From positions 1-64,000 of the IMG/VR virus record IMGVR_UViG_3300042545_001167: a stretch of 64,000 bases of DNA. One strand, given 5' to 3'. How positions within the stretch are numbered: position 1 is the stretch's first letter; each line of letters begins with the position of its first letter. The notes beneath the pieces are model-generated. The model ran no database searches. It saw only the letters and a list, made by a program, of their open reading frames with translations, and was not told the origin of the DNA. This stretch comes from a virus. Position numbers and translations under genes: made by a program. Below are positions 30,163-42,991 of this stretch, one piece after another.

Positions 30163-31377
30163 TTATGCGATGAAGTAGGTAGGATCAGTGCCTGATGTGA
30201 TTGCGCCTTTAGAGGTCCTGCCAGATGTAGCCTGTTTCCAGTTGGTTCCTCCTGCGAATGTGGTTACTGGTGTGTTTCTTTGTGTTGCATCATTAGTTCC
30301 CAACATCCCCGTGCCTAAATCTGCGCCCCATGTCCATAGAGTTCCATCAGTTTTAATTGATATCATACTAAATGTCGTTGATGATCCACCAATTCCAACA
30401 GCAACTTGTTTCCAGTTAGTTCCTCCTGCGAATGTAGTGACTGGAGTGCATCTTGCAGTTGTGTTATTGATTCCTAGTTGCCCATAAAGATTACGGCCCC
30501 AAGTCCATAAAGTTCCATCGGTTTTGATTGCTGCCATATTGCCCGGACTAACATCAACTTGTTTCCAGTTGGTTCCTCCTGCGAATGTTGTGACTGGAGT
30601 TGATCTTTTATTTGTGTCATTGGTTCCTAGTCCTCCATAAGAATTATCTCCCCAAACCCATAAAGTTCCATCAGTTTTAATTGCTGCACTGCAACCAAGA
30701 AATGAAGCGCCGGAAGAAACTTGTTTCCAGTTGGTTCCTCCTGCGAATGTTGTGACTGGAGTGTATCTGAATATTGCATCATTAGTTCCCAAAGTTGCAT
30801 CATTACCACCCCAAACCCACAAAGTTCCGTCAGTTTTGATTGCTGCCATACTACTACCATATCCTAAAGAAACCTGTTTCCAGTTGGTTCCTCCTGCGAA
30901 TGTGGTTACTGGTGTGTTTCTTTGTGTTGTATCATTGGTTCCTAATACTCCTGCAGTATTGTCTCCCCACACCCACAAAGTTCCATCTGTCTTAATTGCT
31001 GCTGTTCTTTTATAACCACAAGAAACTTGTTTCCAGTTGGTTCCTCCTGCGAATGTTTGAACGGGAACTAATCTATTGGAAGCTAAATCGTTTGTTCCCA
31101 GTGCTCCACCAAAACGTCCTCCCCATACCCACAAAGTTCCATCAGTTTTCACTGCTGCTGCATGTCCATATCCATAAGAAACCTGTTTCCAGTTGGTTCC
31201 TCCCTCAAATGTAGTGACTGGAGTGGATCTATTGGATGTTGCATTATTTCCTAACCGTCCATTAAATCCTTCTCCCCAAGTCCATAAAGTATCACCAACC
31301 CATTGGTCAATTAACCAATACTCACTCACAAAGTAATTTTCTAAATCTCCTTCTGGAGAATTAAACTGATTAGGCAT
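30163..31377 (-). CDS. RCC1/BLIP-II-type 7-bladed beta-propeller protein (paralogue A)
   Basis: Seven GGTNWKQ...AIKTDGTLW.WG repeats; start overlaps the stop of the upstream fibre gene. Confidence 0.85.
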   Translation of the reverse strand: MPNQFNSPEGDLENYFVSEYWLIDQWVGDTLWTWGEGFNGRLGNNATSNRSTPVTTFEGGTNWKQVSYGYGHAAAVKTDGTLWVWGGRFGGALGTNDLASNRLVPVQTFAGGTNWKQVSCGYKRTAAIKTDGTLWVWGDNTAGVLGTNDTTQRNTPVTTFAGGTNWKQVSLGYGSSMAAIKTDGTLWVWGGNDATLGTNDAIFRYTPVTTFAGGTNWKQVSSGASFLGCSAAIKTDGTLWVWGDNSYGGLGTNDTNKRSTPVTTFAGGTNWKQVDVSPGNMAAIKTDGTLWTWGRNLYGQLGINNTTARCTPVTTFAGGTNWKQVAVGIGGSSTTFSMISIKTDGTLWTWGADLGTGMLGTNDATQRNTPVTTFAGGTNWKQATSGRTSKGAITSGTDPTYFIA

Positions 31378-32986
31378 CTAATTTTCTCTCCAGTTCTTCA
31401 ATACGAACTTGTTGTTCTTTGATTGCTTCAATTAAAAGTCCAACCATATTGGAATAACTTACTGACTTAATGCCATCGCTATTGGTCTCAACGAGTTCAG
31501 GAAGTACTTTTTCTACTTCCTGAGCAATCAAACCAAGTGAAGGTTTATTGTTATTTATCCAATCAAACCTAACTCCATCAAGTTGTTTCGTAATTTCAAT
31601 CGGATTTTCTATAGGTCTTACGTTAGTTTTTTGAGTTGCGTCTGATAGTGATGTAAATTGAGTTGCTGCTAGGTTTCCAGATAGTGGATTAAATTGGAGA
31701 TTTGTTGAAGAAACATTTGCTGCAGAAATAGATCCTGATGTAGAGTCAGTAAATGTAAGATACCTAGTTGCATTTGTTGAGATATCATCGCTTATTGTTA
31801 CTCCACCTCCACCACCTCCACTAATATTAATAGTTGCGATTCCAGAACTAACTGTTACAGTAGAAATTCCCGAACCTCTAAAGTCTAAGAATGTTGCTCC
31901 AGTTCCTACTGTTCCTCCAGCAGTTGCAATTCCGACACCAGCAACAAGTCCAGTTAAGTTTGCGCCAGAGCCAGAGAATGATAATGCGGTAACAACGCCA
32001 GTAAAACTTGCGGTAGTTCCAAATAAGGATGCTGTATAAGTTGTTATTCCAGAGAAGGTAGAAACACCAGAAACATTTAATTGTGCAACAGATGCAATAC
32101 CACCCATAACTGATGTAGCAATACCACTAGAAGTAGCATAAGTTGCTGTACCACTAGAGGTTGCATAAGTAGCAATACCACTTATAGGAACATTTGTTAA
32201 TCCAGAACCATTTCCAACAAATGATGCTGCGGTTATGATACCAGTAGTATTAACTGATGCTGCTGCCGTAAGTGCAGAAGAAATTCCAGCACTAGTTGCA
32301 TAAGTTGCAATACCACTAGAGGTTGCATAAGTTGCTATACCAGCACTAGTCGCATAAGTTGCAGCAGTAGAAATTCCTGCAGTTAATGCATAAGTAGCAG
32401 TACTAGAAATACCACTAGAGGTTGCATAAGTTGCTATACCAGAATTTATGGCATAGACAGCAGAAGAAGCAGAAATATTAGTAAGTTTAGAACCATCACC
32501 ATAATAAGTTACAACACCACTTGTACTTGTGGCAGTTACAATACCAGAAAATATTTTTACCGTCCCAATTGTTGCAATACCAGTGATATTGGCATTAAGT
32601 GCAGTAAACCCACTAAAGGATATACTACCCCCAATATCCAACTTTCCAGTAACACTTGTATCGCCTTGAACATAAAGTGCTGTTTGTCCTGTAGAGACTG
32701 AAGAACGAACATCTAATAAGTAGTTTGGCAGTGCTGTTCCTACACCAACAGAACCACTACCTAATGCTGTAAGAACCGTTCCATTCGTTCCGACGTTTAG
32801 TTCGTTTATAACAGTTGAGATTCCTGTTAGATAAGAATCTGTTGCAATAAACCTACCACGTAGATCTAATTCCACTCTTGGAATAGTAGAACCTATGCCA
32901 ACATTTTTAGTTTGACCGCTTACAATAAGAACGTCAGAATTAACTTCTAATCCGTCTTTTATAACAAACGCTTTTTTAATTGCCAT
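31370..32986 (-). CDS. Tail fibre protein with C-terminal intramolecular chaperone (peptidase S74)
   Basis: F.IKDGLEV N-terminus, GDGSKLTNI, SSGIATYAT repeats, SLSDATQKTNV...[15 protein letters not shown]...VSYSNMVGLLIEAIKE. Confidence 0.85.
   Translation of the reverse strand: MAIKKAFVIKDGLEVNSDVLIVSGQTKNVGIGSTIPRVELDLRGRFIATDSYLTGISTVINELNVGTNGTVLTALGSGSVGVGTALPNYLLDVRSSVSTGQTALYVQGDTSVTGKLDIGGSISFSGFTALNANITGIATIGTVKIFSGIVTATSTSGVVTYYGDGSKLTNISASSAVYAINSGIATYATSSGISSTATYALTAGISTAATYATSAGIATYATSSGIATYATSAGISSALTAAASVNTTGIITAASFVGNGSGLTNVPISGIATYATSSGTATYATSSGIATSVMGGIASVAQLNVSGVSTFSGITTYTASLFGTTASFTGVVTALSFSGSGANLTGLVAGVGIATAGGTVGTGATFLDFRGSGISTVTVSSGIATINISGGGGGGVTISDDISTNATRYLTFTDSTSGSISAANVSSTNLQFNPLSGNLAATQFTSLSDATQKTNVRPIENPIEITKQLDGVRFDWINNNKPSLGLIAQEVEKVLPELVETNSDGIKSVSYSNMVGLLIEAIKEQQVRIEELERKLDA
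32110..32452. repeat. Degenerate 27-nt repeats encoding S(S/A)GIATYAT
   Basis: ataccactagaggttgcataagttgc-type units in two clusters. Confidence 0.75.
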
Positions 32987-33067: not shown

Positions 33068-33637
33068 ATGTCTTATCCATTGGTAATTAGAAATTTTATT
33101 ACAGAAGAAGAAAATGATTATTTTTTAAACTGGATAGAAGAAAATAAATCTTCATATGATCAACATATAAGTTCAGAAGATTACTGGTCCAAAAGATGCA
33201 TATATTATTCTTCAATTAAGGAAGAAGAAGTTAGAGAAAAATTAATTAAGTTAATTGTATCAATTAGAAGTGTTGTAGAGAAAACTTCTATATCTGACCA
33301 AAAACTTTTTATAGAATATCCACAATTTGTTAGGTGGGAAAATAAAGTAGAACTTACTCCACATGCAGATAATATTGAGCAAGATGGAGTTACTCCAAAC
33401 TCATCTCCTTGGAGATCGCACGGAAGTGTTCTTTATTTTAATAGTTCTTTTGTTGGTGGAGAATTATATTATCCAAATTTGAATATAGAAGTTAAACCAG
33501 AACCAAGAATGCTAGTTGTTCATCCAGCAGATTTAAAATTCACACATGGAGTTAAAAAAGTTGAGAGCGGCGTTAGGCAGACATTAAGCGTTTTTTTGAC
33601 TTATGATCCACATGCCGCTCCCGTTTATAACGATTGA
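33068..33637 (+). CDS. Prolyl 4-hydroxylase-like 2OG-Fe(II) oxygenase
   Basis: VIRNFITEEE N-terminus, HAD (HxD), SVLYFN..FVGGELYYP, HGVKKVESGVR (distal His and 2OG-binding Arg). Confidence 0.75.
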   Translation: MSYPLVIRNFITEEENDYFLNWIEENKSSYDQHISSEDYWSKRCIYYSSIKEEEVREKLIKLIVSIRSVVEKTSISDQKLFIEYPQFVRWENKVELTPHADNIEQDGVTPNSSPWRSHGSVLYFNSSFVGGELYYPNLNIEVKPEPRMLVVHPADLKFTHGVKKVESGVRQTLSVFLTYDPHAAPVYND

Positions 33638-33641
33638 ATTT

Positions 33642-36600
33642 TTATTTGCCTGTTGGTGGTGGTGAGACTAGTTTATTGTGAGATAATAAGTTTTCTGAGA
33701 TATAGGTGTGACCACCATCAACTTGAATTGCAACAACCTTTCCAGGTTCTGCACTTTCAATTTTTATAATTGTATGCCCAGAAATAATATCACCAACTTT
33801 TAAACTACAAGCTAAAACCCAACCACTTTCTTCACTATAAAATGTATGAGTAGGTGAGCAGGTAAATTCAACATGATCAAAGATAATTTTCAATCTTTCA
33901 GAATCAACTTGCTTAACATAATCAATTAAGTATTCACCCCATTCTAAAGTATGTTCATGTCGAGTTGTAATTAAATCACCAACTTTTAGATCACCTGCAT
34001 TCTTTTGAGTTCCATCTGCCATTAAGATCTTTGTCCATGGAGCAGGACAGGATGTAATTGGTGGTGATGGATTCGTTACAGGTGGATTCGTTACTGGTGG
34101 AGTAACTATCTTTAAATTGTGAGATAATAATCCTTCACAGATATAAGTGTGAGCACCCTTAATTTGAATTGCAACGACATCTCCATATTCATAATCATCA
34201 ATTTCAAGTAAGGTATGTCCACTTATAATATCCCCAATTACCATATCACAAACTCTAGTCCAACCTTTATTTTCAACATACATTTTATGAGATGTTGAGC
34301 AGACCAAATCTTTGTGGTCAAATTTCATTTTAAATCTATCTTCTTGAACGATAGAAACTTTTAATACAGAGTATTCACCCCATTCTAAAGTGTGTTCATC
34401 TTGAGTTTTTATTAAATCACCAACTTTTAGATCACCCGCATTCTTAAGAGTCCCGTCAGACATTAATATCTTTGCCCATGGTGCAGGACAAGATGGTGCC
34501 AGTGATGGTGGCGCAACTGGTGGCGCAACTGGTGGCGCAACTGGTGGCGCAACTGGTGCGGGTGGCTTTGGCGCTTTTGGTGGTGGTGCTTTTGGTGGTG
34601 GCGGTGGCGGTGGTGGTGACACAAATGCTAACAAGGGGTCTTGCTGTGTTCGTGGGAGAACAAATGGAGGTGGTGGCGGTGATTTTGGCGGTGGTGGCGG
34701 TGGTGGAGGAGGATTTCTTCTGTTGTGCGATAATAATCCGTCACTAATAAAAGTATGTGCATCATCAACTTCAATTGAAACAACATCACCATATTCAACA
34801 CTCTCCACACTTATTAATTTTTGATTACTTACAACATCACCAATTGCCATATCACAAACTCTAGTCCAACCTTTATTTTCAACATACATTTTATGAGTTG
34901 GAGAAAAAATAACCTTAGCATTATCAAAAGTAAGTTTTAATCTTTCCGACTGTAAGGTTGAATTATGTGTAATTGGATACTCTCCCCATTCTAAAGTATG
35001 TTCATGTTGAGTTTTAATTAAATCACCAACTTTCAAATCTCTAGCATTTTTTTGAGTCTTATCTGACATCAAAATCTTTGGAAATGGATTAAAAATTGGC
35101 AGTGGAGATTCTGTTAATTCAATCTTCACTGTACGCGATAACAATCCTTCACCAATAAAAGTATATGCCTCATCAACTTCAATAACAATAACATCTCCAC
35201 TTTCAGCAGGTTCTACTGACAATAGTTTTTGATTACTTATAACATCACCAATTACCATATCGGTAACTAATATCCAACCTTTACCATCAACATACATTTT
35301 ATGAGTTGGAGAGCAAGTAAAGTTAGACTCTTCAAAAGTGAGTTTTAATCTTTCTGAAGGACTTACTTTTTTATAAGTAATTGGATACTCTCCCCATTCT
35401 AAAGTATTTTTATGCTGCGTTTTAAGAATATCTCCAACCACTAAATCGCCTGCATTCTTAAGAGTTCCATCTGCCATTAAGATCTTTGTCCATGGAGCAG
35501 GACAAGATGGTGGTGGTGGCGGCGGTGGTGGAGGAGGTGGTGGGGGTGGTACATATTCGCGAATTACAACTTTTCCAAGACCGGCATTACCACCTTGTTG
35601 CGTAGAAGTAATTATTACAGACCCATCACTATATCCACTTCCACCTCCACCACCTCCACCGTTACCACCATTGCCGCCAGTTGCACCACTGCCGCCATTG
35701 CCTCCAGAATTTATTCCTTGTCCTGCAGTGCCATTAATTCCATATCCTGGTTTATATCCTCTTGCAATTGTTGCCGTATTTGTACTTACTCCTGCAGTAG
35801 GTGTATAGTACTTTGTATTTCCAACATCAGCACATGCAGAAAATCCTAGAGTGGCCCAATATTCACCTTTAGTGCAAGGTAGTACTCTACCTCCGTTGGG
35901 AGCAATTGCTAAAGTATCTCCAGATTTAAGTGTTACGAATTGAACACTAGAACCAAATATACCATTTGAGGGTAATGTTCCTGCAGCATAAAGACTTCCA
36001 CCAGACCCACTGGCAGTAAGACCTGCTACGTTAACGCCACCACCGTCACCGCCACTACCATTTTTTCCTGCATTTCCTCCTCCACCAGCAACAGCAATTA
36101 ATTTTGCTTTTTTATATAGAAAAACACCTCCACCATTTTTAGTTAGAGAAAGAGGCGTGACAGCATATTCTTCATTTTTATTTAATGTTAATCTGATTGT
36201 AGATACTCCACCTCTTCCTCCAACAAAAGTTCCATAATCTGCTCCAGCAGTTCCGTACATATCAATATATGCCTCAATACTTAGTTCTGGTGCATAAAAT
36301 GTAAGAATACTTCCAGGTGGTATTTGATCTGGATTTATTGTATATGGACCTTGAGTAACAATATTCCAAGAATATAATAGTGCCTCAGTACTGTTATCAT
36401 CCGGAATTACTTCAACGTTAAGTATTTTTCTAGGAGCAACTACATCAAGATTGGCATTATTTGTATATAATGGAGAGTTTGAAGCAGTGGGATGAGTAAT
36501 TTTTGCTCTAACAGTATTAATCCCAATATTTGGTAAAGAAATTAAAAGTTCATTTGTTTTAGAACCTTGTATAGTTGCACTGTCCGAAAGATCAGAACCA

Positions 36601-37145
36601 TTTAATTGCCATTGATAAGAAATATTTCCTTGACTAGTATCTGTAATTGATGCATTAGTAACAAATCTTGTATATGAGTTTTGTCCAATAGTACTAATGC
36701 CAGGTTGTTTTGTTACCGATAATGTTGGATAGACTGTTAAAACTGCACTACTAGATGAAATTGGATCATTTATTGCATTTCCAGTTGATCTGGCAGTACC
36801 AACTGTAATTGGATTTTCTCCATATGCAGATGGTATATAATCTGCATTTAAATAAAACTGTTTATTATGATCAGTTGGACTAACGACATTAGAAATAGTT
36901 AATGTCGTAGTTGCAGATCCAGTTACATTTGCACCATCAGTTAATGGTCCATTTTGATCATACCATCGATAAGAAATATATCCAGTGGGTATTGCAGGAT
37001 TTGGTGGAGTTTGTATGGGAAATGTTGCTGTTGCAATACCGATAAAAGTTGCAGATCCACCATTAGTAGTTGCTGCTCCAACTGGATTTGTAGTAAATGA
37101 TAGAATTGGACCGTTTAGATCTAAAGTTGTCTGTTTGTTTAACAT
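33642..37145 (-). CDS. Virion structural protein: Ig-like domains + Gly-rich domain + four tandem Hint domains with polyproline linkers
   Basis: ISYRWY/ISYQWQLNG Ig repeats; AVAGGGG...GGGGGSGY Gly-rich domain; four 125-aa units C-PAPWTKILMADG...SPTH...HT(F/Y)I.EGLLSHN. Confidence 0.8.
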   Translation of the reverse strand: MLNKQTTLDLNGPILSFTTNPVGAATTNGGSATFIGIATATFPIQTPPNPAIPTGYISYRWYDQNGPLTDGANVTGSATTTLTISNVVSPTDHNKQFYLNADYIPSAYGENPITVGTARSTGNAINDPISSSSAVLTVYPTLSVTKQPGISTIGQNSYTRFVTNASITDTSQGNISYQWQLNGSDLSDSATIQGSKTNELLISLPNIGINTVRAKITHPTASNSPLYTNNANLDVVAPRKILNVEVIPDDNSTEALLYSWNIVTQGPYTINPDQIPPGSILTFYAPELSIEAYIDMYGTAGADYGTFVGGRGGVSTIRLTLNKNEEYAVTPLSLTKNGGGVFLYKKAKLIAVAGGGGNAGKNGSGGDGGGVNVAGLTASGSGGSLYAAGTLPSNGIFGSSVQFVTLKSGDTLAIAPNGGRVLPCTKGEYWATLGFSACADVGNTKYYTPTAGVSTNTATIARGYKPGYGINGTAGQGINSGGNGGSGATGGNGGNGGGGGGGSGYSDGSVIITSTQQGGNAGLGKVVIREYVPPPPPPPPPPPPPPSCPAPWTKILMADGTLKNAGDLVVGDILKTQHKNTLEWGEYPITYKKVSPSERLKLTFEESNFTCSPTHKMYVDGKGWILVTDMVIGDVISNQKLLSVEPAESGDVIVIEVDEAYTFIGEGLLSRTVKIELTESPLPIFNPFPKILMSDKTQKNARDLKVGDLIKTQHEHTLEWGEYPITHNSTLQSERLKLTFDNAKVIFSPTHKMYVENKGWTRVCDMAIGDVVSNQKLISVESVEYGDVVSIEVDDAHTFISDGLLSHNRRNPPPPPPPPPKSPPPPPFVLPRTQQDPLLAFVSPPPPPPPPKAPPPKAPKPPAPVAPPVAPPVAPPVAPPSLAPSCPAPWAKILMSDGTLKNAGDLKVGDLIKTQDEHTLEWGEYSVLKVSIVQEDRFKMKFDHKDLVCSTSHKMYVENKGWTRVCDMVIGDIISGHTLLEIDDYEYGDVVAIQIKGAHTYICEGLLSHNLKIVTPPVTNPPVTNPSPPITSCPAPWTKILMADGTQKNAGDLKVGDLITTRHEHTLEWGEYLIDYVKQVDSERLKIIFDHVEFTCSPTHTFYSEESGWVLACSLKVGDIISGHTIIKIESAEPGKVVAIQVDGGHTYISENLLSHNKLVSPPPTGK
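33675..34049 (-). other. Hint domain 4 (Cys1, SPTH, terminal His-Asn, +1 Lys)
   Basis: CPAPWTKILMADGTQK...TCSPTHTFY...GHTYISENLLSHN|K. Confidence 0.8.
34116..34490 (-). other. Hint domain 3 (Cys1, STSH, terminal His-Asn, +1 Leu)
   Basis: CPAPWAKILMSDGTLK...VCSTSHKMY...AHTYICEGLLSHN|L. Confidence 0.8.
34506..34553. repeat. 12-nt tandem repeat x4 encoding VAPP within the Pro-rich linker
   Basis: tggtggcgcaac x4. Confidence 0.9.
34722..35096 (-). other. Hint domain 2 (no Cys1; terminal His-Asn kept, +1 Arg)
   Basis: IFNPFPKILMSDKTQK...FSPTHKMY...AHTFISDGLLSHN|R. Confidence 0.75.
35130..35504 (-). other. Hint domain 1 (Cys1 kept; terminal His-Asn replaced by Arg-Thr)
   Basis: CPAPWTKILMADGTLK...TCSPTHKMY...AYTFIGEGLLSRT. 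Confidence 0.75.
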
Positions 37146-37156
37146 ATCAATCTCCT

Positions 37157-40100
37157 TTAGTTAACAAAGTTTTGTCCGTCAACGAAACCGTACCAAGATA
37201 CTCCACCATCAAAAGTCTTGAATGAATATATATCCGCTCTATTTGCAGTTGGTGTTATGGTTGGCAGAACACCACCACCAGGCCAATAAACCGGTAAAAT
37301 TCCTCCACTAGAATTTCTAAAGTCATCAATATCAACCAGATATCCACCAATTGCATTTTGTGCAATTTTAATAACAAATGAACTTGCTCCAGATGGTGCA
37401 TTAATAATCGTAAATTGATTAACTGTTTCCGATAATGTAAAATCGAATGACTGTGCCTGAGACAGATCAATTGTGACAATATTAGACGAACTTGAGATTG
37501 TTTGAACAACTTCGGAATATGTCTTAAATCTTGTATGCCCCTCAATGTCAAGTTTTGCTCTTGGTACTGCTGTTCCAATACCAATTAATGGACCATTAGT
37601 TGTGAGCGTAGTTCCAGCACTACCAACTATAAGATTTGTTGTAGTAACAATACCTGCTCTAATTTGACCCGATGTTGACTTTAGATCAAATGCCGTTGCG
37701 GTTAGCATTCCGCTTACAAATACATTATTTGCGGTGATAATTCCAGCAAATACTGCCTCTCCATTAACATAAAGTGTCGTTGCAGATGTTCCAACAGGAC
37801 CAACTTCAAGATTAAATCTAGGAACTGATGTACCAATACCAACAGTACCCAATAATGTATTATAAATTCCACCACTAATTTGAGACCACCCGGCAGCACT
37901 TACATTTATATTTGTTAATCCACTTCCATCGCCAGAGAAGTAAGAACCGTAGCAAGTGCCGATGAAATTTGTACTGCCATTTATCTGAAGTTTAAATTGA
38001 TTTGCACTGGTTCCAATGCCAACACCACCACTTGAATTAATGGAAACAATTGAAGATCCACCACCAACCTGAAGAAGATTGGAACCGGGACTTGTGGTTG
38101 CAATACCAACCTGATCAAAGAGAGCAATATTTAAATCTTTGGAAAGGCTGACAGCACCAAAACGATACCATTCATTGTCAGTAGTATAAACCCATCCAAG
38201 ATATCCACCCTTCGTTGGATTTTGATAGTAAATTACATCTCCAGGATTACCCGAAAGTATTGGTGTAGTAACTCCAACGGTATATTTTCTAGAAACTGTA
38301 GCATCGCCCTGCAAGAACAGCGAGAATGCTTCAATACCTTTATTGGAAGTTGATGTTATCTTATTTCCAAATACAACAGGTCCATTAAACTCAGAAATTG
38401 ATTTGCCATCACTACCACCATCAACACGAATTGAACGACTAAATGTTCCTTGAACTGGAGTAATAACATTTAATCCAGGAAGTCCTCCAATATCTTCACC
38501 AGTTACAGTTTGGACAGGAGTATCAAAGATTTCTTCTTGACCTGTAACTGAACTCAATCTCTTATTTCCTGAGTATGAAATACCCTTATCATTCATACCA
38601 GTATAGAAGTTAATACCACCATCTTTTCTGGTTGATTGTGCAAGGAGTTCCTCTATTGAAGAAATCTGACGATCTTGTTTATCTGGGAATGCAGTTGAAT
38701 AGTTACCAGGACCAAATCCAACATATTCAAATGTATGACCAGATGCACGAATGATTGAATGCCTACGGAACTCAATTGGATTGGCATAAATTCTTCTTAC
38801 AACAGAGTTGACTGAATGACTAACTGCTTTTGTTCCAAGAACTCCACGGAAAACATAAATTGGATTTGTTGGAGTACTTGGAATAGTTGTTTTTACTCTC
38901 ACGATTTCTTCGTCAATTACCAAATAATCACCAATTTTAATATCAAGATTTTCAATATTTTGAATGTTAATCTGGTCCGTAAGTGCATCTGGAATAAGTG
39001 CTGATAAAGTAGTTGTAATTCCAGCATAAGTTGGAATCATTCTGCCATTTAAATTTTCATTATCAACTGTAATTGTACCACCATTTGATGTTACACCTTC
39101 GCGATATGCATAAAGAGTTCCTGCTGCTGAAGGAGAAAATGTTCCAACACCAATCGTAACGGAGAATGAATTTAGATTGAGATTTTCTTTGACAACAAAA
39201 TCTCCGTTATATATTTCTTCAGTAGATCCTATTAAACGAATCTTATTATCAACCTTTAACCCATGACGGTTAGAAGTTGTAATAGTTGCAATTCCAGAAT
39301 TATTATCATATGCCAATGAACTAACTCTAATTGCTTCTCCAGTTAGGTCAGCAAATGCATTTAATGTAAATTGCGTTCCAATACCAAGTGTTGAACCAAC
39401 TGAAATTGAAGATGCAGAAGAAACTGCAAATCTATACCCAGCTCCAACAGTAACATTTGTAATTCTATAAAGATCATTAAATGTAGAATAACCTTCGGAG
39501 GATACTCCAGAAATTCTGATAGTATCTCCAACATTATTATAGATTTGAGTAACTGTTACTACTGCCGGAGAATATCCTGTGGTTGTTGCAACACCTACAA
39601 CAGAAAGAGTATTTCCAATTCCATAAGAAGACCCACCATCCATGATTACAATATCAGAAATAGATCCTGATCCATCTACTGATATTTTGGCAGTAGCGAA
39701 GGCACCTGTAGCAGATCCAGCAAATCCAACAAGACTTGCATTATATAAACTTGTAGCACTTCCATACCCATATCCAGATCCAGCATTAGTAATACTGACT
39801 TGTGTGATACGATTTAATCCATGATCAATAGCAGTATGTACAGTATGTGTAGATGCATCTGTTGAAGTAATATCTGTAATAGCAATGCCTACATTACTAT
39901 CCGATAGAACTTTGGAGATTGTTTCTTTTGTAATACTCTTACGGACATCATTAACTACAACTTCACCAATTACTGATGAAGATGCAAACGATTGAGTCTC
40001 ATCTGGATCTGATTCTGGATTATCACGATTTGTTTGCGGATAAAGTTCTTTTACTGGTTGAGAATATTTTTCCTCAGTAAAAGGATCAACACTTGGGGAA

Positions 40101-42991
40101 TTGGAGGAATTTAGAACAGTTAAGTAATAGACACCATCTTGTTGCCCTGCAATATATTTTTGTGCTTCTTGAGTTTTGAGATTATAATAGGTATTCTTAT
40201 ACTTACTTCTTTTAAAATATGGAAGAGAAGAATCTCTTGCTGAAATATCATTTGTTAATGCACCTGGATCAGTGTCTAAAGCAAATGTAAATACTTTAGC
40301 ATTTGTAATTGTACTTACTACATAAGTTCCATTATATCCAGAATTACTTGCACCAATTACATTATTTGAACTTTTAATATTAAAAAATGTGACTTCAGAT
40401 CCTACTGATAAATTATGAGGAAGTTCTGTAGTGATATATGCAATACCTGCTTGCCACTGGGCATCAGCAACGAATCTAAAGTTTCTTTGCTGATTTACAT
40501 TTGAAATAGAACCAGCACCAAAATAAGTTTGAATTTCTCCGCTAGTTGCTCCAATAGTGGTATTAGATTCTTGAATAACAAATCCATCACTTGGTGGTCT
40601 TGCATACAATCCAGAAGATGCGGGAATTACATATCTTAGACGATAAATCGTATCATTTGCATTTCTTGAATCTTGCTTACGATTGATATATGTTCTAGGA
40701 GTTGCTGCACCAAGAATAGTTGAACCAAAACTTACGATTGCTGGATAAATCTTATTATCAGTTTCACTGTTTGATACCTGAATATACCATTGTGAATTAT
40801 TGTAATCAAACTGAACTGGGTGTCCAATGTCCCCAGAATTCTTATCAGATACTCTACTTACAACACTTAAAATACCACCTTTGTTGTTAATTAAAATCTC
40901 ACTTGCACTGATGGCATCGTTTTGAGTTTTTGCAAGTTTCAGTTGCGTAGTTGTTGTAAGTCCACTGCTTGCATTACTACTCGTAATTGCATAATAAACT
41001 GTATTTGGCAACAAACCATCAGGAAGTTGTCCATTATCACTCAATATGCGAACTGATTCTCCATTTATAAATGTATGATTTTGTGTTAATGAAAGTGTAT
41101 TGCTGGAAATATTATTAATACCAGAAATACTACGACTTACATAGAATTTCTTCTCAGAAGTTGTCTGAGATCCAGGCATTACAATACGAGCACTATATTC
41201 TGATGCAGTGCTTCCTGCTGAAATTATAACTTTTAGAGTATCATTTTCTCTAGCACCAATACGATATCCTTCTAGAACATTTTCTGGTGCAACATCAGAG
41301 TTTGTTTGATTATAAAGATAGAGATATCCTGTTGAAGCAACCCCAACGGTCTTACTTACGTCAATTGAATTAAATTCAATTGCGGTTTCAACCTTTGGAA
41401 TTTCTTTTGGTGGAATAATATGAGTGATATAACCAAGATCATCTTGAGGAAATGCATTTCTTCTAAAACCTGAAGCAACAAGTGCCTTTGCTCCAAAGTT
41501 AGAGTTTGAGTTGGTAACTGAAAAGTCACCACCACTTTCTACAGCAAAATGTTCAGCATAACCAATCGCAAAGATTGAAACATTCTGAACAAATGCATCA
41601 TTAATTGCCTTAATATGGAAATTCCTATATGTGGGTTTAAAGATTGCTCTTGAATTTGTACTAATTGTCTCATTTCCAGGAACTGTAGTATCATCATAAG
41701 TTCCCGTAGATGAATTGTACAATACAAACGCATTATCATCTTTCTGCAATCCAATACCCGTGAATTGGGCAATAACCATTGATTTAAATCCTGATGCCTT
41801 ATCACCATCAGCAAGAACTCCGCACATTCCATAAACAGAACGTAAAGAGATGTTAAAGATGTATGGAGATGCTGAAGTTACAGTATCGGAAGTAAGTGAT
41901 AAAGTTGACCCAGTTGATGATGGGAAAGCAACCAATGGGGCATTTTGAACTTGATATTTAATTACAGTGTCACTTAATTTTTCAGTTACAACAAATTGTC
42001 CGTTATAACCTTCTGCAATAATACCAGAAATTCTGAATGGAGTATCTACATCAAGGCCAGATACGCCAGATTCAGTAGTAACTGTAATTATTTTTGATGG
42101 AGTAATTCCATTACCAGAAATAATACTTGAAATACCAACAGATGCTCCAGTAGAACCTACAATACGATATTCATCAATCTTGGGTTGAATATCAATGCTA
42201 GATGAAGGATAATCTGGTTCAATTGCACGACCAGATGATTGTCCATATGCAAGTCCAACTTTCTCATAATACATATCCAGGTCAGTACGATCTGTTGAAT
42301 ATGTTTGAAAAACATCATCAATATTTACATCATTTACTCCATCAGCATATTCAAAGCAAGATAATTTGTGATGAGAGAAGTTAGGTACAAAAAGATTTTC
42401 AGTGTAATCAAGATAGCACTGTCCATTTGGATCGGCATCAAATAAAGAAAACTGCCATATATAACATCCGCCGGTTACACGGAAAATAGTCGATCTTTCA
42501 ATATTATCGTTAGTTGGATTGGGAACATACTTTGGACGAATTTTAGTCTTTCTTAAATCGAGTCCAACAATTGAAGTACCACGAGGAATAATAACTCCTC
42601 CATGAATACTATTCATTTTATAAAGTACGTTATCTGATGTAGTGAGATCAAAGTTTGATGTTAAATCCCAAGCAGGAAAATTATTACTTGTAGAACCATT
42701 CCTAAGTCTAAAATTATTTGAACCATCAGGAATCCATCCTGGACGATTATCTATAACGTGATCGCCTGGATATAGAAGAATTGTTGTTTTACCAAATCTA
42801 TCATTATTCAGTCCTCTTTGGTAAGAGAATCTTGATGCCTCAATTAGTGCTCTTTGAATCGTTTTAAATGGACGAGTCAGTGAGTTTCCTTGATTCTCAA
42901 TACTATCCGTAGAATCAAGACTGTTTGGATCAACATATATGATTGTACCACGAACAGACTTTAGAAAATTATCTAAACGAGAGAGACCCAT
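37157..42991 (-). CDS. Large virion structural/tail fibre protein (1944 aa) of cyanomyoviruses
   Basis: MGLSRLDNFLK...PFKTIQRALIE N-terminus, beta-helix segment (PRGTSIVGLDLRKT), HGL/HNL repeats, GIGT fibre repeats, C-terminal DIYSFKTFDGG..W. Confidence 0.75.
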   Translation of the reverse strand: MGLSRLDNFLKSVRGTIIYVDPNSLDSTDSIENQGNSLTRPFKTIQRALIEASRFSYQRGLNNDRFGKTTILLYPGDHVIDNRPGWIPDGSNNFRLRNGSTSNNFPAWDLTSNFDLTTSDNVLYKMNSIHGGVIIPRGTSIVGLDLRKTKIRPKYVPNPTNDNIERSTIFRVTGGCYIWQFSLFDADPNGQCYLDYTENLFVPNFSHHKLSCFEYADGVNDVNIDDVFQTYSTDRTDLDMYYEKVGLAYGQSSGRAIEPDYPSSSIDIQPKIDEYRIVGSTGASVGISSIISGNGITPSKIITVTTESGVSGLDVDTPFRISGIIAEGYNGQFVVTEKLSDTVIKYQVQNAPLVAFPSSTGSTLSLTSDTVTSASPYIFNISLRSVYGMCGVLADGDKASGFKSMVIAQFTGIGLQKDDNAFVLYNSSTGTYDDTTVPGNETISTNSRAIFKPTYRNFHIKAINDAFVQNVSIFAIGYAEHFAVESGGDFSVTNSNSNFGAKALVASGFRRNAFPQDDLGYITHIIPPKEIPKVETAIEFNSIDVSKTVGVASTGYLYLYNQTNSDVAPENVLEGYRIGARENDTLKVIISAGSTASEYSARIVMPGSQTTSEKKFYVSRSISGINNISSNTLSLTQNHTFINGESVRILSDNGQLPDGLLPNTVYYAITSSNASSGLTTTTQLKLAKTQNDAISASEILINNKGGILSVVSRVSDKNSGDIGHPVQFDYNNSQWYIQVSNSETDNKIYPAIVSFGSTILGAATPRTYINRKQDSRNANDTIYRLRYVIPASSGLYARPPSDGFVIQESNTTIGATSGEIQTYFGAGSISNVNQQRNFRFVADAQWQAGIAYITTELPHNLSVGSEVTFFNIKSSNNVIGASNSGYNGTYVVSTITNAKVFTFALDTDPGALTNDISARDSSLPYFKRSKYKNTYYNLKTQEAQKYIAGQQDGVYYLTVLNSSNSPSVDPFTEEKYSQPVKELYPQTNRDNPESDPDETQSFASSSVIGEVVVNDVRKSITKETISKVLSDSNVGIAITDITSTDASTHTVHTAIDHGLNRITQVSITNAGSGYGYGSATSLYNASLVGFAGSATGAFATAKISVDGSGSISDIVIMDGGSSYGIGNTLSVVGVATTTGYSPAVVTVTQIYNNVGDTIRISGVSSEGYSTFNDLYRITNVTVGAGYRFAVSSASSISVGSTLGIGTQFTLNAFADLTGEAIRVSSLAYDNNSGIATITTSNRHGLKVDNKIRLIGSTEEIYNGDFVVKENLNLNSFSVTIGVGTFSPSAAGTLYAYREGVTSNGGTITVDNENLNGRMIPTYAGITTTLSALIPDALTDQINIQNIENLDIKIGDYLVIDEEIVRVKTTIPSTPTNPIYVFRGVLGTKAVSHSVNSVVRRIYANPIEFRRHSIIRASGHTFEYVGFGPGNYSTAFPDKQDRQISSIEELLAQSTRKDGGINFYTGMNDKGISYSGNKRLSSVTGQEEIFDTPVQTVTGEDIGGLPGLNVITPVQGTFSRSIRVDGGSDGKSISEFNGPVVFGNKITSTSNKGIEAFSLFLQGDATVSRKYTVGVTTPILSGNPGDVIYYQNPTKGGYLGWVYTTDNEWYRFGAVSLSKDLNIALFDQVGIATTSPGSNLLQVGGGSSIVSINSSGGVGIGTSANQFKLQINGSTNFIGTCYGSYFSGDGSGLTNINVSAAGWSQISGGIYNTLLGTVGIGTSVPRFNLEVGPVGTSATTLYVNGEAVFAGIITANNVFVSGMLTATAFDLKSTSGQIRAGIVTTTNLIVGSAGTTLTTNGPLIGIGTAVPRAKLDIEGHTRFKTYSEVVQTISSSSNIVTIDLSQAQSFDFTLSETVNQFTIINAPSGASSFVIKIAQNAIGGYLVDIDDFRNSSGGILPVYWPGGGVLPTITPTANRADIYSFKTFDGGVSWYGFVDGQNFVN

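Follow-up and report, generated by a model that had tools for sequence, protein, structure and literature searches.

Two neighbouring Hint domains of a viral protein were found to have lost catalytic residues in a complementary manner, and the pair probably (with a probability of roughly 0.6) forms a fused unit of 261 aa and 29 kDa that, judged from its residues, would be processed only at Ser547|Cys548 and Asn808|Arg809. The two domains belong to an array of four BIL-type Hint domains that makes up the C-terminal half of a protein of 1167 aa (123.7 kDa), in which they follow an N-terminal domain and have linkers between them. The ORF was identified at 33642-37145 on the minus strand of the window, which is the whole 64,000 nucleotide stretch analysed (positions 1 to 64,000 of IMG/VR record IMGVR_UViG_3300042545_001167). 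All features of the protein described below are likewise on the minus strand.

Genomic context of the Hint-array gene

The N-terminal domain (aa 1-530; 35556-37145) consists of Ig-like repeats and a Gly-rich region and was matched to phrog_24848 (E 1.7e-124). Homologues of aa 1-470 were identified using tblastn in Synechococcus phages Bellamy and S-SM2 and in Prochlorococcus phage P-TIM68. The Hint part was found to be unmatched (E <= 1e-5) in the phage records that cover aa 1-470 of the N-terminal domain (H1-H8 and H10), and the match to a separate phage record (H9) was restricted to aa 691-1157. Tail-fibre genes flank the ORF, namely phrog_529 at 37157-42991 and Peptidase_S74 at 31370-32986. 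The best explanation of the gene product is that it is a structural protein of the tail-fibre module of a T4-like cyanophage, the IMG/VR record being cyanomyovirus-like. In the whole record of 116,709 bases, estimated to be 53% complete, the only Hint copies are these four. A prolyl-hydroxylase-like oxygenase was also identified as a neighbour of the Hint-array gene.

Catalytic residues of the Hint domains and their linkers

Hint1 to Hint4 are each 125 aa in length and align without gaps, with pairwise identities of 55-63%. Hint1 (aa 548-672; 35130-35504) is preceded by a poly-proline stretch (aa 531-547; 35505-35555) that has Pro at 14 of 17 positions and runs up to Ser547, ahead of the predicted cleavage site. 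The domain starts with CPAPW, its Cys1 being encoded at 35502-35504, and retains the block B residues S65 and H68 within CSPTH. It contains AYTF and a C-terminal LLSRT, with the changes His114Tyr (35163-35165), His124Arg (35133-35135) and Asn125Thr (35130-35132), to which E32K and Y116F are added. In Hint2 (aa 684-808; 34722-35096) the first six residues are IFNPFP, not CPAPWT, with Ile684 (35094-35096) at position 1, and S65 and H68 (FSPTH), H114 (AHTF) and the C-terminal His-Asn of LLSHN (34722-34727) are retained; Y116F is also found in this domain. These mixed motifs had been reported by the initial annotation and were confirmed for both domains by translation and an alignment of the four Hints.

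The catalytic positions of Hint3 (aa 886-1010; 34116-34490) and Hint4 (aa 1033-1157; 33675-34049) are all intact, with the motifs CPAPW, SxxH, (A/G)HTY and LLSHN. Cys therefore occupies position 1 of Hint1, Hint3 and Hint4, LLSHN is C-terminal in Hint2, Hint3 and Hint4, and both S65 and H68 (block B (S/T)xxH) are present in all four. The residues at +1 of Hint1 to Hint4 are Val, Arg, Leu and Lys, none of them Cys, Ser or Thr.

Hint1 and Hint2 are joined by the 11-aa linker L12 (VKIELTESPLP; aa 673-683; 35097-35129), the three forming one open frame of 261 aa at 34722-35504. The Pro content of this linker (2 of 11 residues, 18%) had been thought to set it apart, and it is indeed the lowest of all linkers, the other segments having 30-82%. 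These are the stretch before Hint1 (82%), linker L23 (77 aa, 52%; aa 809-885; 34491-34721), linker L34 (22 aa, 32%; aa 1011-1032; 34050-34115) and the C-terminal tail KLVSPPPTGK (30%; aa 1158-1167; 33645-33674), which is followed by the stop codon (33642-33644). L23 starts with the Arg at +1 of Hint2 and shows indels between the two strains.

The changes at the degenerate junction are base substitutions (CAY to TAT, CAC AAY to CGT ACA, and 9 of 18 nt at the start of Hint2). An origin by frameshift was rejected, as the other two frames over aa 655-705 contain stops. C64F in Hint2 was rejected as a coupled loss, position 64 being Cys in just 128 of 192 family units.

Assignment to the HINT superfamily

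The four domains belong to the HINT (Hedgehog/intein) superfamily by fold, profile and block B. Pfam matches were obtained to Hom_end_hint (PF05203; 46.9 bits, cut-off 32.1) and Intein_splicing (PF14890; 41 bits, cut-off 35.8), and sequence matches in PDB were to BIL2, the BIL domain 2lwy and the gp41-1 intein. An AF2 model of aa 548-808 had a mean pLDDT of 88.2 and displayed an all-beta pattern twice over, with L12 below 50. Foldseek comparison to PDB gave 45 matches (E <= 0.001), those listed all being BIL, intein or Hedgehog structures, with a target-normalised TM of 0.71-0.81 for BIL2 and inteins. In the features compared, namely the conserved His-Asn end, the missing +1 nucleophile and a location in variable regions of non-conserved proteins, the domains fit A-type BIL domains. 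The host proteins of homologous Hints were found to be very diverse.

A canonical splicing intein was rejected due to the lack of Cys, Ser or Thr at +1 and to the flanks, which are not a conserved insertion site but low-complexity linkers rich in Pro and a tail of 10 aa. A Pretoxin HINT was rejected, with PF07591 absent from the Pfam matches (E <= 1) and just short linkers and the 10-aa tail downstream of the Hints, as was a Hedgehog Hog domain (PF01079 at 13.4 bits against a cut-off of 29.7; no sterol-recognition region). The same applied to a BUBL-type BIL, as Pfam ubiquitin-like families are absent from the Hint-array protein and the flanks are Pro-rich.

Conservation of catalytic residues in the family

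The family survey comprised 234 homologous proteins with 269 Hint units among the matches listed, drawn from the best 150 of 2138 cluster representatives (E <= 0.001) and from matches of further searches. Among these 234 proteins, 246 of the 248 Hint units assessable for Cys1 had this residue, and 260 of the 261 assessable for the C-terminal His-Asn had that motif. This near-invariance indicates that the reciprocal loss in Hint1 and Hint2 is real, derived and very unusual, and two lost ends within a single protein greatly exceed what the family rate would give. All 192 of 192 family units have His at position 68 and 182 of 192 have Ser at position 65, whereas His114 admits exceptions (176 of 192 have His, the others including Arg and Lys). 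At +1, Lys predominates (152 of 202 units), with Thr in 5 and Ser in 3. Of the positions with at least 90% conservation across the family, Hint1 departs at five, Hint2 at two, Hint3 at none and Hint4 at one; three of the five in Hint1 are the Asn-cyclisation residues, and the two in Hint2 include Cys1. A fully dead relative, P0106, has Gly1, ARTY and SHD. Several homologues of the Hint-array protein have a precomputed match to PF07591.

It had been suggested that homologues be compared for the same reciprocal losses. No second independent case was identified, as the inner junctions listed for 27 other multi-Hint proteins are all intact; nor was there random loss of catalytic residues, which the initial annotation had set against its own reading, since homologues show almost no loss. 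The closest two-Hint orthologue among the matches listed, P0194, has the inner junction SHN|LKIISGGTNTSSTPSW|CPAPW. Fully intact Hints are joined by short non-Pro linkers (KLDS, LVGKGS, LKIISGGTNTSSTPSW) in other proteins, and a non-Pro linker alone therefore does not go with loss of cleavage. If two of the eight ends are lost, they would by chance face each other across a linker with a probability of 3/28 (0.11), so that the facing pattern by itself is only suggestive.

A search of viral contigs with the four-Hint alignment for further lineages with a fused pair returned the same strain only. With a degenerate C-terminal motif pattern, 34 IMG/VR stretches were identified, 28 of them from other phages with one Hint each; Cys1 was found in 26 of the 26 of these whose N-terminus lies on the contig, HN being present by construction of the pattern. 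Metagenome contigs gave no match to the Hint1-Hint2 pair, and a junction-pattern search of metagenomes gave 4 chance matches, none with a Hint.

Sister strain and selection on the pair

Five further IMG/VR contigs (L005-L009) were found to represent one sister strain with 96% aa identity and the same architecture, and L010 is a fragment of this strain that begins at Hint3. The recurrence of the architecture in L005-L009 rules out an assembly or sequencing artefact. AYTF, LLSRT and an identical L12 are shared by the sister strain, with IFNQFP at the start of its Hint2. The fused-pair state is known from these two close strains only (dS about 0.12).

Comparison with L006 gave a dN/dS of 0.15 for the Hint1-Hint2 pair (18 synonymous and 11 non-synonymous differences), which is under purifying selection. 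Values for the single domains were 0.095 for Hint1 and 0.36 for Hint2, the latter based on only 4 synonymous and 6 non-synonymous changes. In the tree, the four Hints group as a single clade (support 0.85), within which Hint1 and Hint2 are sister duplicates, a grouping that makes the loss derived; the longest branch in this clade is that of Hint1. The 5’ end of Hint1 shares an identical tract of 43 nt with that of Hint4.

The reciprocal pattern had been taken as the outcome of selection on the choice of peptides produced, as opposed to random decay. This was not established, as the data are explained equally well if a dispensable inner junction was lost neutrally and selection acted on the outer ends only, and relaxed selection on a redundant junction was judged at least as likely as positive selection. 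Since the fused pair is restricted to a single lineage and could be neutral, its general importance is limited.

Predicted processing of the pair and alternative explanations

Cys1 of inteins is required for the N-S acyl shift, and Asn cyclisation requires His F:13, His G:6 and Asn G:7, as described in PMC4031507; for BIL domains without a +1 nucleophile, PMC7664689 describes mainly cleaved products. As the Hints of the array have no Cys, Ser or Thr at +1, they would be expected mainly to cleave, not to splice. Hint1 is without the three Asn-cyclisation residues and Hint2 without the Cys1 nucleophile, complementary losses that would leave neither bond flanking the 11-aa linker breakable. At the outer ends, Hint1 would form a thioester at Ser547|Cys548, followed by release or transfer of the 55-kDa N-terminal part, and Hint2 would cleave at Asn808|Arg809. 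The precursor would thus yield one di-Hint from the pair, and Hint3 and Hint4 as single 14-kDa domains. We infer both that the outer reactions run and that the inner junction is dispensable. The claim of the initial annotation that the pair is cut only at its outer ends thus follows from established intein chemistry, as applied to the sequence alone. The changes at E32 and Y116 in Hint1 and at Y116 in Hint2 could impair the remaining half-reactions.

The AF2 pTM was 0.51 for the Hint1-Hint2 pair and 0.48 for the Hint3-Hint4 control pair, with a pLDDT below 50 at residues 128-138 of the former. The pTM, which is about the same as that of the control, and the disordered linker fit two independent beads, and rigid packing of Hint1 against Hint2 was rejected, as AF2 gave no sign of it.

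It is unlikely that Hint1 and Hint2 are instead wholly inactive relics that serve as a passive spacer, the N-terminal domain staying attached and the outer motifs surviving through recency or gene conversion. The additional departures from conserved positions (E32K and Y116F in Hint1, Y116F in Hint2) and the long branch of Hint1 are in keeping with this, and the 43-nt tract shared with Hint4 points to gene conversion as a possible means of renewing the Cys1 motif. In addition, PMC4031507 describes some inteins in which the C-terminal reaction is absolutely coupled to the preceding N-terminal steps, so that a Cys1-less Hint2 might not cleave at all. However, the dN/dS values of the pair and of Hint1 argue against relics, as do the confident folding of both domains in AF2 and the fact that the residues of the Hint1 N-side and the Hint2 C-side are all intact. 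P0106 shows that a fully dead Hint can exist, but it decayed at both ends together, unlike Hint1 and Hint2.

A composite site formed by domain swapping, in which the N-half of Hint1 (Cys1, SxxH) and the C-half of Hint2 (His114, His-Asn) make up a complete Hint that cleaves or splices as a double-sized element, is very unlikely. The dead halves would then constitute an inert inner Hint, resembling the insertions that interrupt inteins. In its favour, the residues that survive complement each other exactly, and the pseudo-two-fold symmetry of the Hint fold, whose origin PMC7664689 discusses with reference to duplication, fusion and domain swapping, is compatible with it. A Hint has its N- and C-termini next to each other, and the 11-aa linker could conceivably close an inner permuted domain. 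Against this stand the pTM of the pair, close to that of the control, the linker pLDDT below 50 and the lack of any precedent in the literature searched.

Ser is the nucleophile in many inteins, and in an alternative MAFFT alignment the linker SPLP is paired with CPAP/CPDP, leaving IFNP as a 4-residue insertion and Ser680 of ESPLP at the nucleophile position of Hint2. Cleavage of the inner junction by such substitute residues, which would mean that the pair is not fused, is nevertheless most improbable, since Ser is at position 1 in 0 of 248 assessable family units, the insertion would shift the register against the first strand, the segment has a pLDDT below 50 and is without the strand contact found at residue 2 of the other Hints, the DNA comparison gives no preference for this alignment (8 vs 9 changes over 18 nt by manual count) and the C-terminus of Hint1 has neither Asn nor Gln.

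Comparison with known Hint systems

A-type BIL domains were reportedly described by Amitai et al. in 2003 and Dassa et al. in 2004. They are characterized in PMC7765530 by a conserved C-terminal His-Asn, no +1 nucleophile and a location in variable regions of non-conserved proteins. With them the phage Hints share the mini Hint fold, N-terminal Cys, C-terminal His-Asn, missing +1 nucleophile and variable non-conserved hosts, and the same N- and C-cleaved fragments would be expected as products (PMC7765530, PMC7664689). The BIL domain 2lwy was matched in sequence (E 8.4e-5) and in fold (target-normalised TM 0.80). Unlike A-type BIL domains, those of the phage are four in tandem within a tail-fibre-module protein, are joined by Pro-rich linkers and include two with complementary losses.

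For protein purification, single-site inteins have been engineered that cleave at the N-terminal side (terminal Asn mutated) or at the C-terminal side (Cys1 mutated). Off-pathway single-site cleavage of inteins is also described (PMC4031507). From its residues, Hint1 looks like a natural Asn-less version limited to the N-side and Hint2 like a Cys1-less version limited to the C-side, with the difference that the phage versions are natural, lie side by side in one polypeptide and have an activity that is predicted. Should processing of the pair be limited to its outer ends, the two variants of the engineers would exist in nature next to each other, and the array would be a simple test bed for the independence of N-side and C-side reactions in BIL-type Hints. 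N-side-only use, as proposed for Hint1, is also known from the Hedgehog Hog/Hint domain, described in PMC7664689 as carrying out the N-terminal acyl shift only, with no C-terminal Asn reaction. Hedgehog structures 1at0 and 6tyy were among the fold matches, but the phage Hints are without a sterol-recognition region.

The best PDB match was BIL2 of the Tetrahymena thermophila BUBL1 polyubiquitin-like locus (6y75, 6tmm), with E values of 2.5e-6 in sequence and 3.9e-8 in fold and a target-normalised TM of 0.71-0.76, at a sequence identity of just 16-19%. BIL2 of BUBL1 sits between short cargo domains, as the phage Hints sit between linkers, and is described as activating the upstream domain and passing it to a lysine epsilon-amine without ATP (PMC8616854). 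The two differ in that the phage Hints are flanked by Pro-rich linkers, not ubiquitin-like domains, and that conjugation, as described for BIL2, would be hypothetical for the phage domains. That the array is a phage counterpart of BUBL, an ATP-independent dispensing platform in which the dead junction marks L12 as non-cargo and the pair is a deliberately inert spacer, is speculative and distinctly unlikely. In that case the upstream Hint would free the N-terminus of each Pro-rich segment, and of the fibre-like N-terminal domain, while the downstream Hint would activate the C-terminus as a thioester for isopeptide attachment to a lysine of a virion or host target. The +1 Lys, widely conserved in the family, could be the usual acceptor, and the neighbouring oxygenase might modify the Pro-rich cargo.

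The literature searched contains no description of this marine phage Hint family, and neither tandem nor half-inactivated Hints are described there for structural proteins of phages. The 2138 cluster representatives (E <= 0.001) suggest that BIL-type Hints form a large family in the structural proteins of marine phages, with catalytic residues that are almost invariant and a +1 residue that is usually Lys; cleavage, splicing and covalent attachment are its candidate roles in the virion.

Tandem Hint domains of P0001

Translation of 34722-35504 (minus strand) was found to be free of stop codons, giving 261 residues that comprise two Hint domains of 125 aa joined by an 11-aa linker (VKIELTESPLP). 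This pair forms part of P0001, a protein of 1167 aa encoded by the ORF at 33642-37145 (minus strand), in which an N-terminal domain (aa 1-530) and a poly-proline stretch (aa 531-547, proline at 14 of 17 residues) precede four repeats, namely Hint1 (aa 548-672), Hint2 (aa 684-808), Hint3 (aa 886-1010) and Hint4 (aa 1033-1157). These are separated by linkers L12 (aa 673-683, 11 aa, 18% proline), L23 (aa 809-885, 77 aa, 52% proline) and L34 (aa 1011-1032, 22 aa, 32% proline), with a 10-aa tail (aa 1158-1167) ending the protein. They are the only Hints of the source IMG/VR record (116,709 bases, estimated 53% complete).

The four repeats align without gaps, with identities of 55-63% at the protein and 67-74% at the DNA level. 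Hint1 carries the motifs CPAPW, CSPTH, AYTF and LLSRT, and Hint2 carries IFNPFP, FSPTH, AHTF and LLSHN. The residue details from which the initial annotation had proposed reciprocal catalytic losses were all correct on translation and four-Hint alignment, and L12 does have the lowest proline content of the linkers.

Domain identity and proposed processing

The repeats scored above the curated Pfam cut-offs (Hom_end_hint 46.9 bits, Intein_splicing 41 bits), and a four-repeat profile matched, among PDB sequences, BIL2 from the BUBL1 locus of Tetrahymena (E 2.5e-6), a bacterial intein-like (BIL) domain from Clostridium thermocellum (2lwy, E 8.4e-5) and the gp41-1 intein. Foldseek comparison of an AlphaFold2 model of the Hint1-Hint2 pair (mean pLDDT 88.2) with the PDB placed BIL2 (6y75, 6tmm) at the top, followed by inteins, 2lwy and Hedgehog, with target-normalised TM values of 0.7-0.8. 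The +1 residue after the C-terminal Asn position is Val, Arg, Leu or Lys in Hint1 to Hint4, and in none of them Cys, Ser or Thr. Two reviews describe BIL-type Hints as conserving His-Asn without a +1 nucleophile, as lying in variable regions and as giving mainly N- and C-cleaved rather than spliced products (PMC7765530, PMC7664689), and by these descriptions the sequences of Hint1 to Hint4 can be assigned to the BIL type. Hint3 (P0001 aa 892-964) was also matched by Pfam AXH (PF08517; 33.3 bits, cut-off 33), a domain likewise present in the precomputed matches of homologues P0049 and P0194; on Hint3 this is likely to be a cross-match without much significance.

According to PMC4031507, the N-terminal scissile bond is activated by Thr B:7 and His B:10, and Asn cyclisation is served by His F:13, His G:6 and Asn G:7. 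On the window Hints these map to S65 and H68 (B:7, B:10) and to H114, H124 and N125 (F:13, G:6, G:7). Hint1 has kept Cys1, S65 and H68 and none of the three Asn-cyclisation residues, so the bond between residues 672 and 673 should not be cleavable by Asn cyclisation. In Hint2, Cys1 is the only catalytic residue lost, along with the entire CPAPW motif, so the bond between residues 683 and 684 should not be convertible to a thioester.

From these residues we infer, with a probability of roughly 0.6, that the pair would be processed at its outer ends only, giving one di-Hint of 29.3 kDa in addition to single Hint3 (14.1 kDa) and Hint4 (13.9 kDa). A thioester would form at Ser547-Cys548, after which the N-terminal part (55.5 kDa) would be released or transferred; Asn cyclisation would occur at Asn808-Arg809, and L23, L34 and the tail would be freed as peptides. 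The main risk to outer-end processing is coupling of the N-side and C-side half-reactions, which PMC4031507 describes as absolute in some inteins and which might shut down Hint2 alone or the whole pair. Against a rigid or domain-swapped composite stand the pTM of the pair model (0.51) and a pLDDT under 50 at residues 128-138, with the intact Hint3-Hint4 pair behaving alike (pTM 0.48); AlphaFold2 predicts two independent beads.

Both half-types are already known, as Hedgehog possesses an N-side-only Hint and Cys1-less, C-side-only variants have been made by mutation; cleavage at both ends is likewise known for BIL domains. A literature search found no published description of a natural tandem Hint pair with complementary losses and no published account of this phage Hint family.

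Rarity of the losses among homologues

Scanning of 234 homologous proteins (47, a further 144 from the best 150 of 2138, and 43 others) with an HMM built from Hint1 to Hint4 yielded 269 Hint units; weaker and possibly more decayed members lie outside the resulting counts. Local HMM alignments tend to clip mismatched ends, and clipped ends were checked separately. In this set, including the best 150 of 2138, Cys was found at position 1 in 246 of 248 assessable units (21 were unassessable, mostly in truncated proteins) and His-Asn at the C-terminus in 260 of 261. The exceptions were a partial terminal repeat in P0143 and P0106 (163 aa), whose two ends are both dead (Gly1, ARTY for AHTY, SHD for SHN). 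P0106, the sole clearly dead full-length relative in the set, lost both ends together, whereas the window pair did not.

At least two near-complete Hints were identified in 27 proteins of the same set (best 150 of 2138 included), with linkers of 4 to 478 aa. The upstream His-Asn and downstream Cys are both kept at all inner junctions listed for these proteins, even across linkers of 4-7 aa, and short non-Pro linkers among them include KLDS, LVGKGS, LVGKGGG and LKIISGGTNTSSTPSW. Among two-Hint proteins of the set with its best 150 of 2138, P0194 stands nearest to the pair (58% identity); this orthologue shares the Gly-rich N-terminal region and keeps its inner junction intact. The initial annotation had looked to homologues for the same reciprocal losses, and these 27 other multi-Hint proteins do not bear them out; their intact junctions indicate that each Hint normally requires a full active site, and the window lineage is therefore a real exception.

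At positions with a family conservation of 90% or more, five departures were counted in Hint1 (E32K, H114Y, Y116F, H124R, N125T), two in Hint2 (C1I, Y116F), none in Hint3 and one in Hint4 (A113G). One family subgroup with intact Cys1 and His-Asn (P0053, P0055, P0098, P0107, P0109, P0113, P0117, P0120, P0126, P0139, P0195, P0201 and P0202) carries about 30 additional aa following profile position ~37 (…KDLEKASKK…), an insertion that splits the HMM match in two. More distant are P0143 (700 aa) and P0088 (2780 aa), with four to five tandem Hints of the CF(L/M)xGT type; in several repeats of P0143, His-Asn abuts the Cys of the next repeat without a linker.

Origin, conservation and selection

The family rate of lost ends is about 3 in roughly 500 (set including the best 150 of 2138), at which a single protein would hardly be expected to have two; constraint is locally relaxed. 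For two losses among the eight ends, our own arithmetic puts the probability of their facing one another across the same linker at 3 in 28 (~0.11), and the facing geometry taken alone is only suggestive. A frameshift origin was ruled out, the changes being substitutions: CAY to TAT at His114 of Hint1, CAC AAY to CGT ACA at its His-Asn, and 9 of 18 nt altered at the start of Hint2.

A FastTree phylogeny of 196 Hint units, computed after masking the terminal and catalytic columns, grouped the four window Hints in one clade (support 0.85), whose sole other member is P0057, a fragment grouping with Hint4, and whose sisters are the first Hints of orthologues P0005 and P0050. Hint1 and Hint2 were sisters, Hint1 having the longer branch. 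This grouping indicates that the array grew by duplication inside the P0001 gene and that the inner junction was formerly intact. The repeat DNA (33675-35504, minus strand) is mosaic, with the first 43 nt identical between Hint1 and Hint4, nt 200-250 identical between Hint2 and Hint3, and 53-68% identity elsewhere, which suggests gene conversion between non-adjacent repeats.

Five mutually near-identical IMG/VR contigs of a sister strain (L005-L009; L010 is a fragment from it) encode an orthologue 96% identical over the pair, sharing Cys1, AYTF, LLSRT, the entire L12 sequence, AHTF and LLSHN, with IFNQFP at the start of Hint2. Comparison of the window with L006 (Nei-Gojobori) gave dN/dS values, from small counts of synonymous/non-synonymous changes, of 0.095 for Hint1 (13/5), 0.36 for Hint2 (4/6), 0.06 for Hint3 (4/1), 0.09 for Hint4 (11/4), 0.15 for Hint1-L12-Hint2 (18/11) and 0.23 for the N-terminal domain (52/39). 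Small counts notwithstanding, these values indicate that the half-dead Hint1 and Hint2 are not in unchecked decay. Among the six Hint2 replacements is one at Pro4, the last remnant of CPAPW; in Hint1, Hint3 and Hint4 the two strains do not differ in this motif. Judged from the same alignment, the Pro-rich linkers L23 (34491-34721, minus strand) and L34 (34050-34115, minus strand) evolve fast, showing indels and changed repeat units while the Hints are 95-99% identical; L12 is identical, as expected for 11 residues at that divergence. No further lineages with the fused pair were found in IMG/VR or metagenome contigs.

Purifying selection was thus seen on the domain bodies and outer catalytic residues, with relaxation at the inner junction. 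This pattern is expected if the flanks alone are important and the inner cut, once duplication had occurred, could be dispensed with, and selection against release of L12 is not required. The proposal that selection acted on which peptides are released found no backing, as no independent recurrences were found among the homologues and a relaxed inner junction suffices.

Tetrahymena BUBL BIL2, the nearest solved relative, is described in PMC8616854 as transferring its upstream domain onto the epsilon-amine of a lysine through an isopeptide bond made without ATP. Lys occupies the +1 position in 152 of 202 Hint units of homologues P0003-P0193 (including the best 150 of 2138), and this frequency, together with the closeness to BUBL BIL2, hints that the family +1 Lys may be an acceptor. 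By this analogy the array might act as a dispensing platform that frees and activates Pro-rich segments for covalent attachment, L12 being non-cargo, which we regard as improbable.

Genome context

The N-terminal domain matched phrog_24848 (unknown function, E 1.7e-124), and tblastn identified homologues over aa 1-470 in Synechococcus phages Bellamy and S-SM2 and Prochlorococcus phage P-TIM68, with all of these matches stopping short of the Hint part. A separate uncultured-phage record (H9) was matched by tblastn in the Hint part alone (aa 691-1157). The gene is flanked by those of two tail-fibre proteins, of 1944 aa (phrog_529, E = 0) and 538 aa (Peptidase_S74 chaperone domain). Judging from this homology and its position between tail-fibre genes, P0001 most likely belongs to the virion or tail-fibre module of a T4-like cyanophage.

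Directly adjoining the Hint protein gene on the opposite strand, 33068-33637 (plus strand) encodes a 189-aa 2OG-Fe(II) oxygenase (PF13640, E 4e-7; phrog_61), whose weak prolyl-hydroxylase matches among PDB sequences are led by prolyl 3-hydroxylase 1 (E 4e-4), followed by prolyl 4-hydroxylases (E 0.05). The poly-Pro linkers may be hydroxylated by this enzyme; alternatively, the two genes may be neighbours by coincidence. The 538-aa fibre neighbour (31370-32986, minus strand) carries (G/S)IATYATS repeats in addition to its S74 chaperone domain, and its sister-strain counterpart (L010, 1492-3603) measures 704 aa from stop to stop, with an extra central segment.
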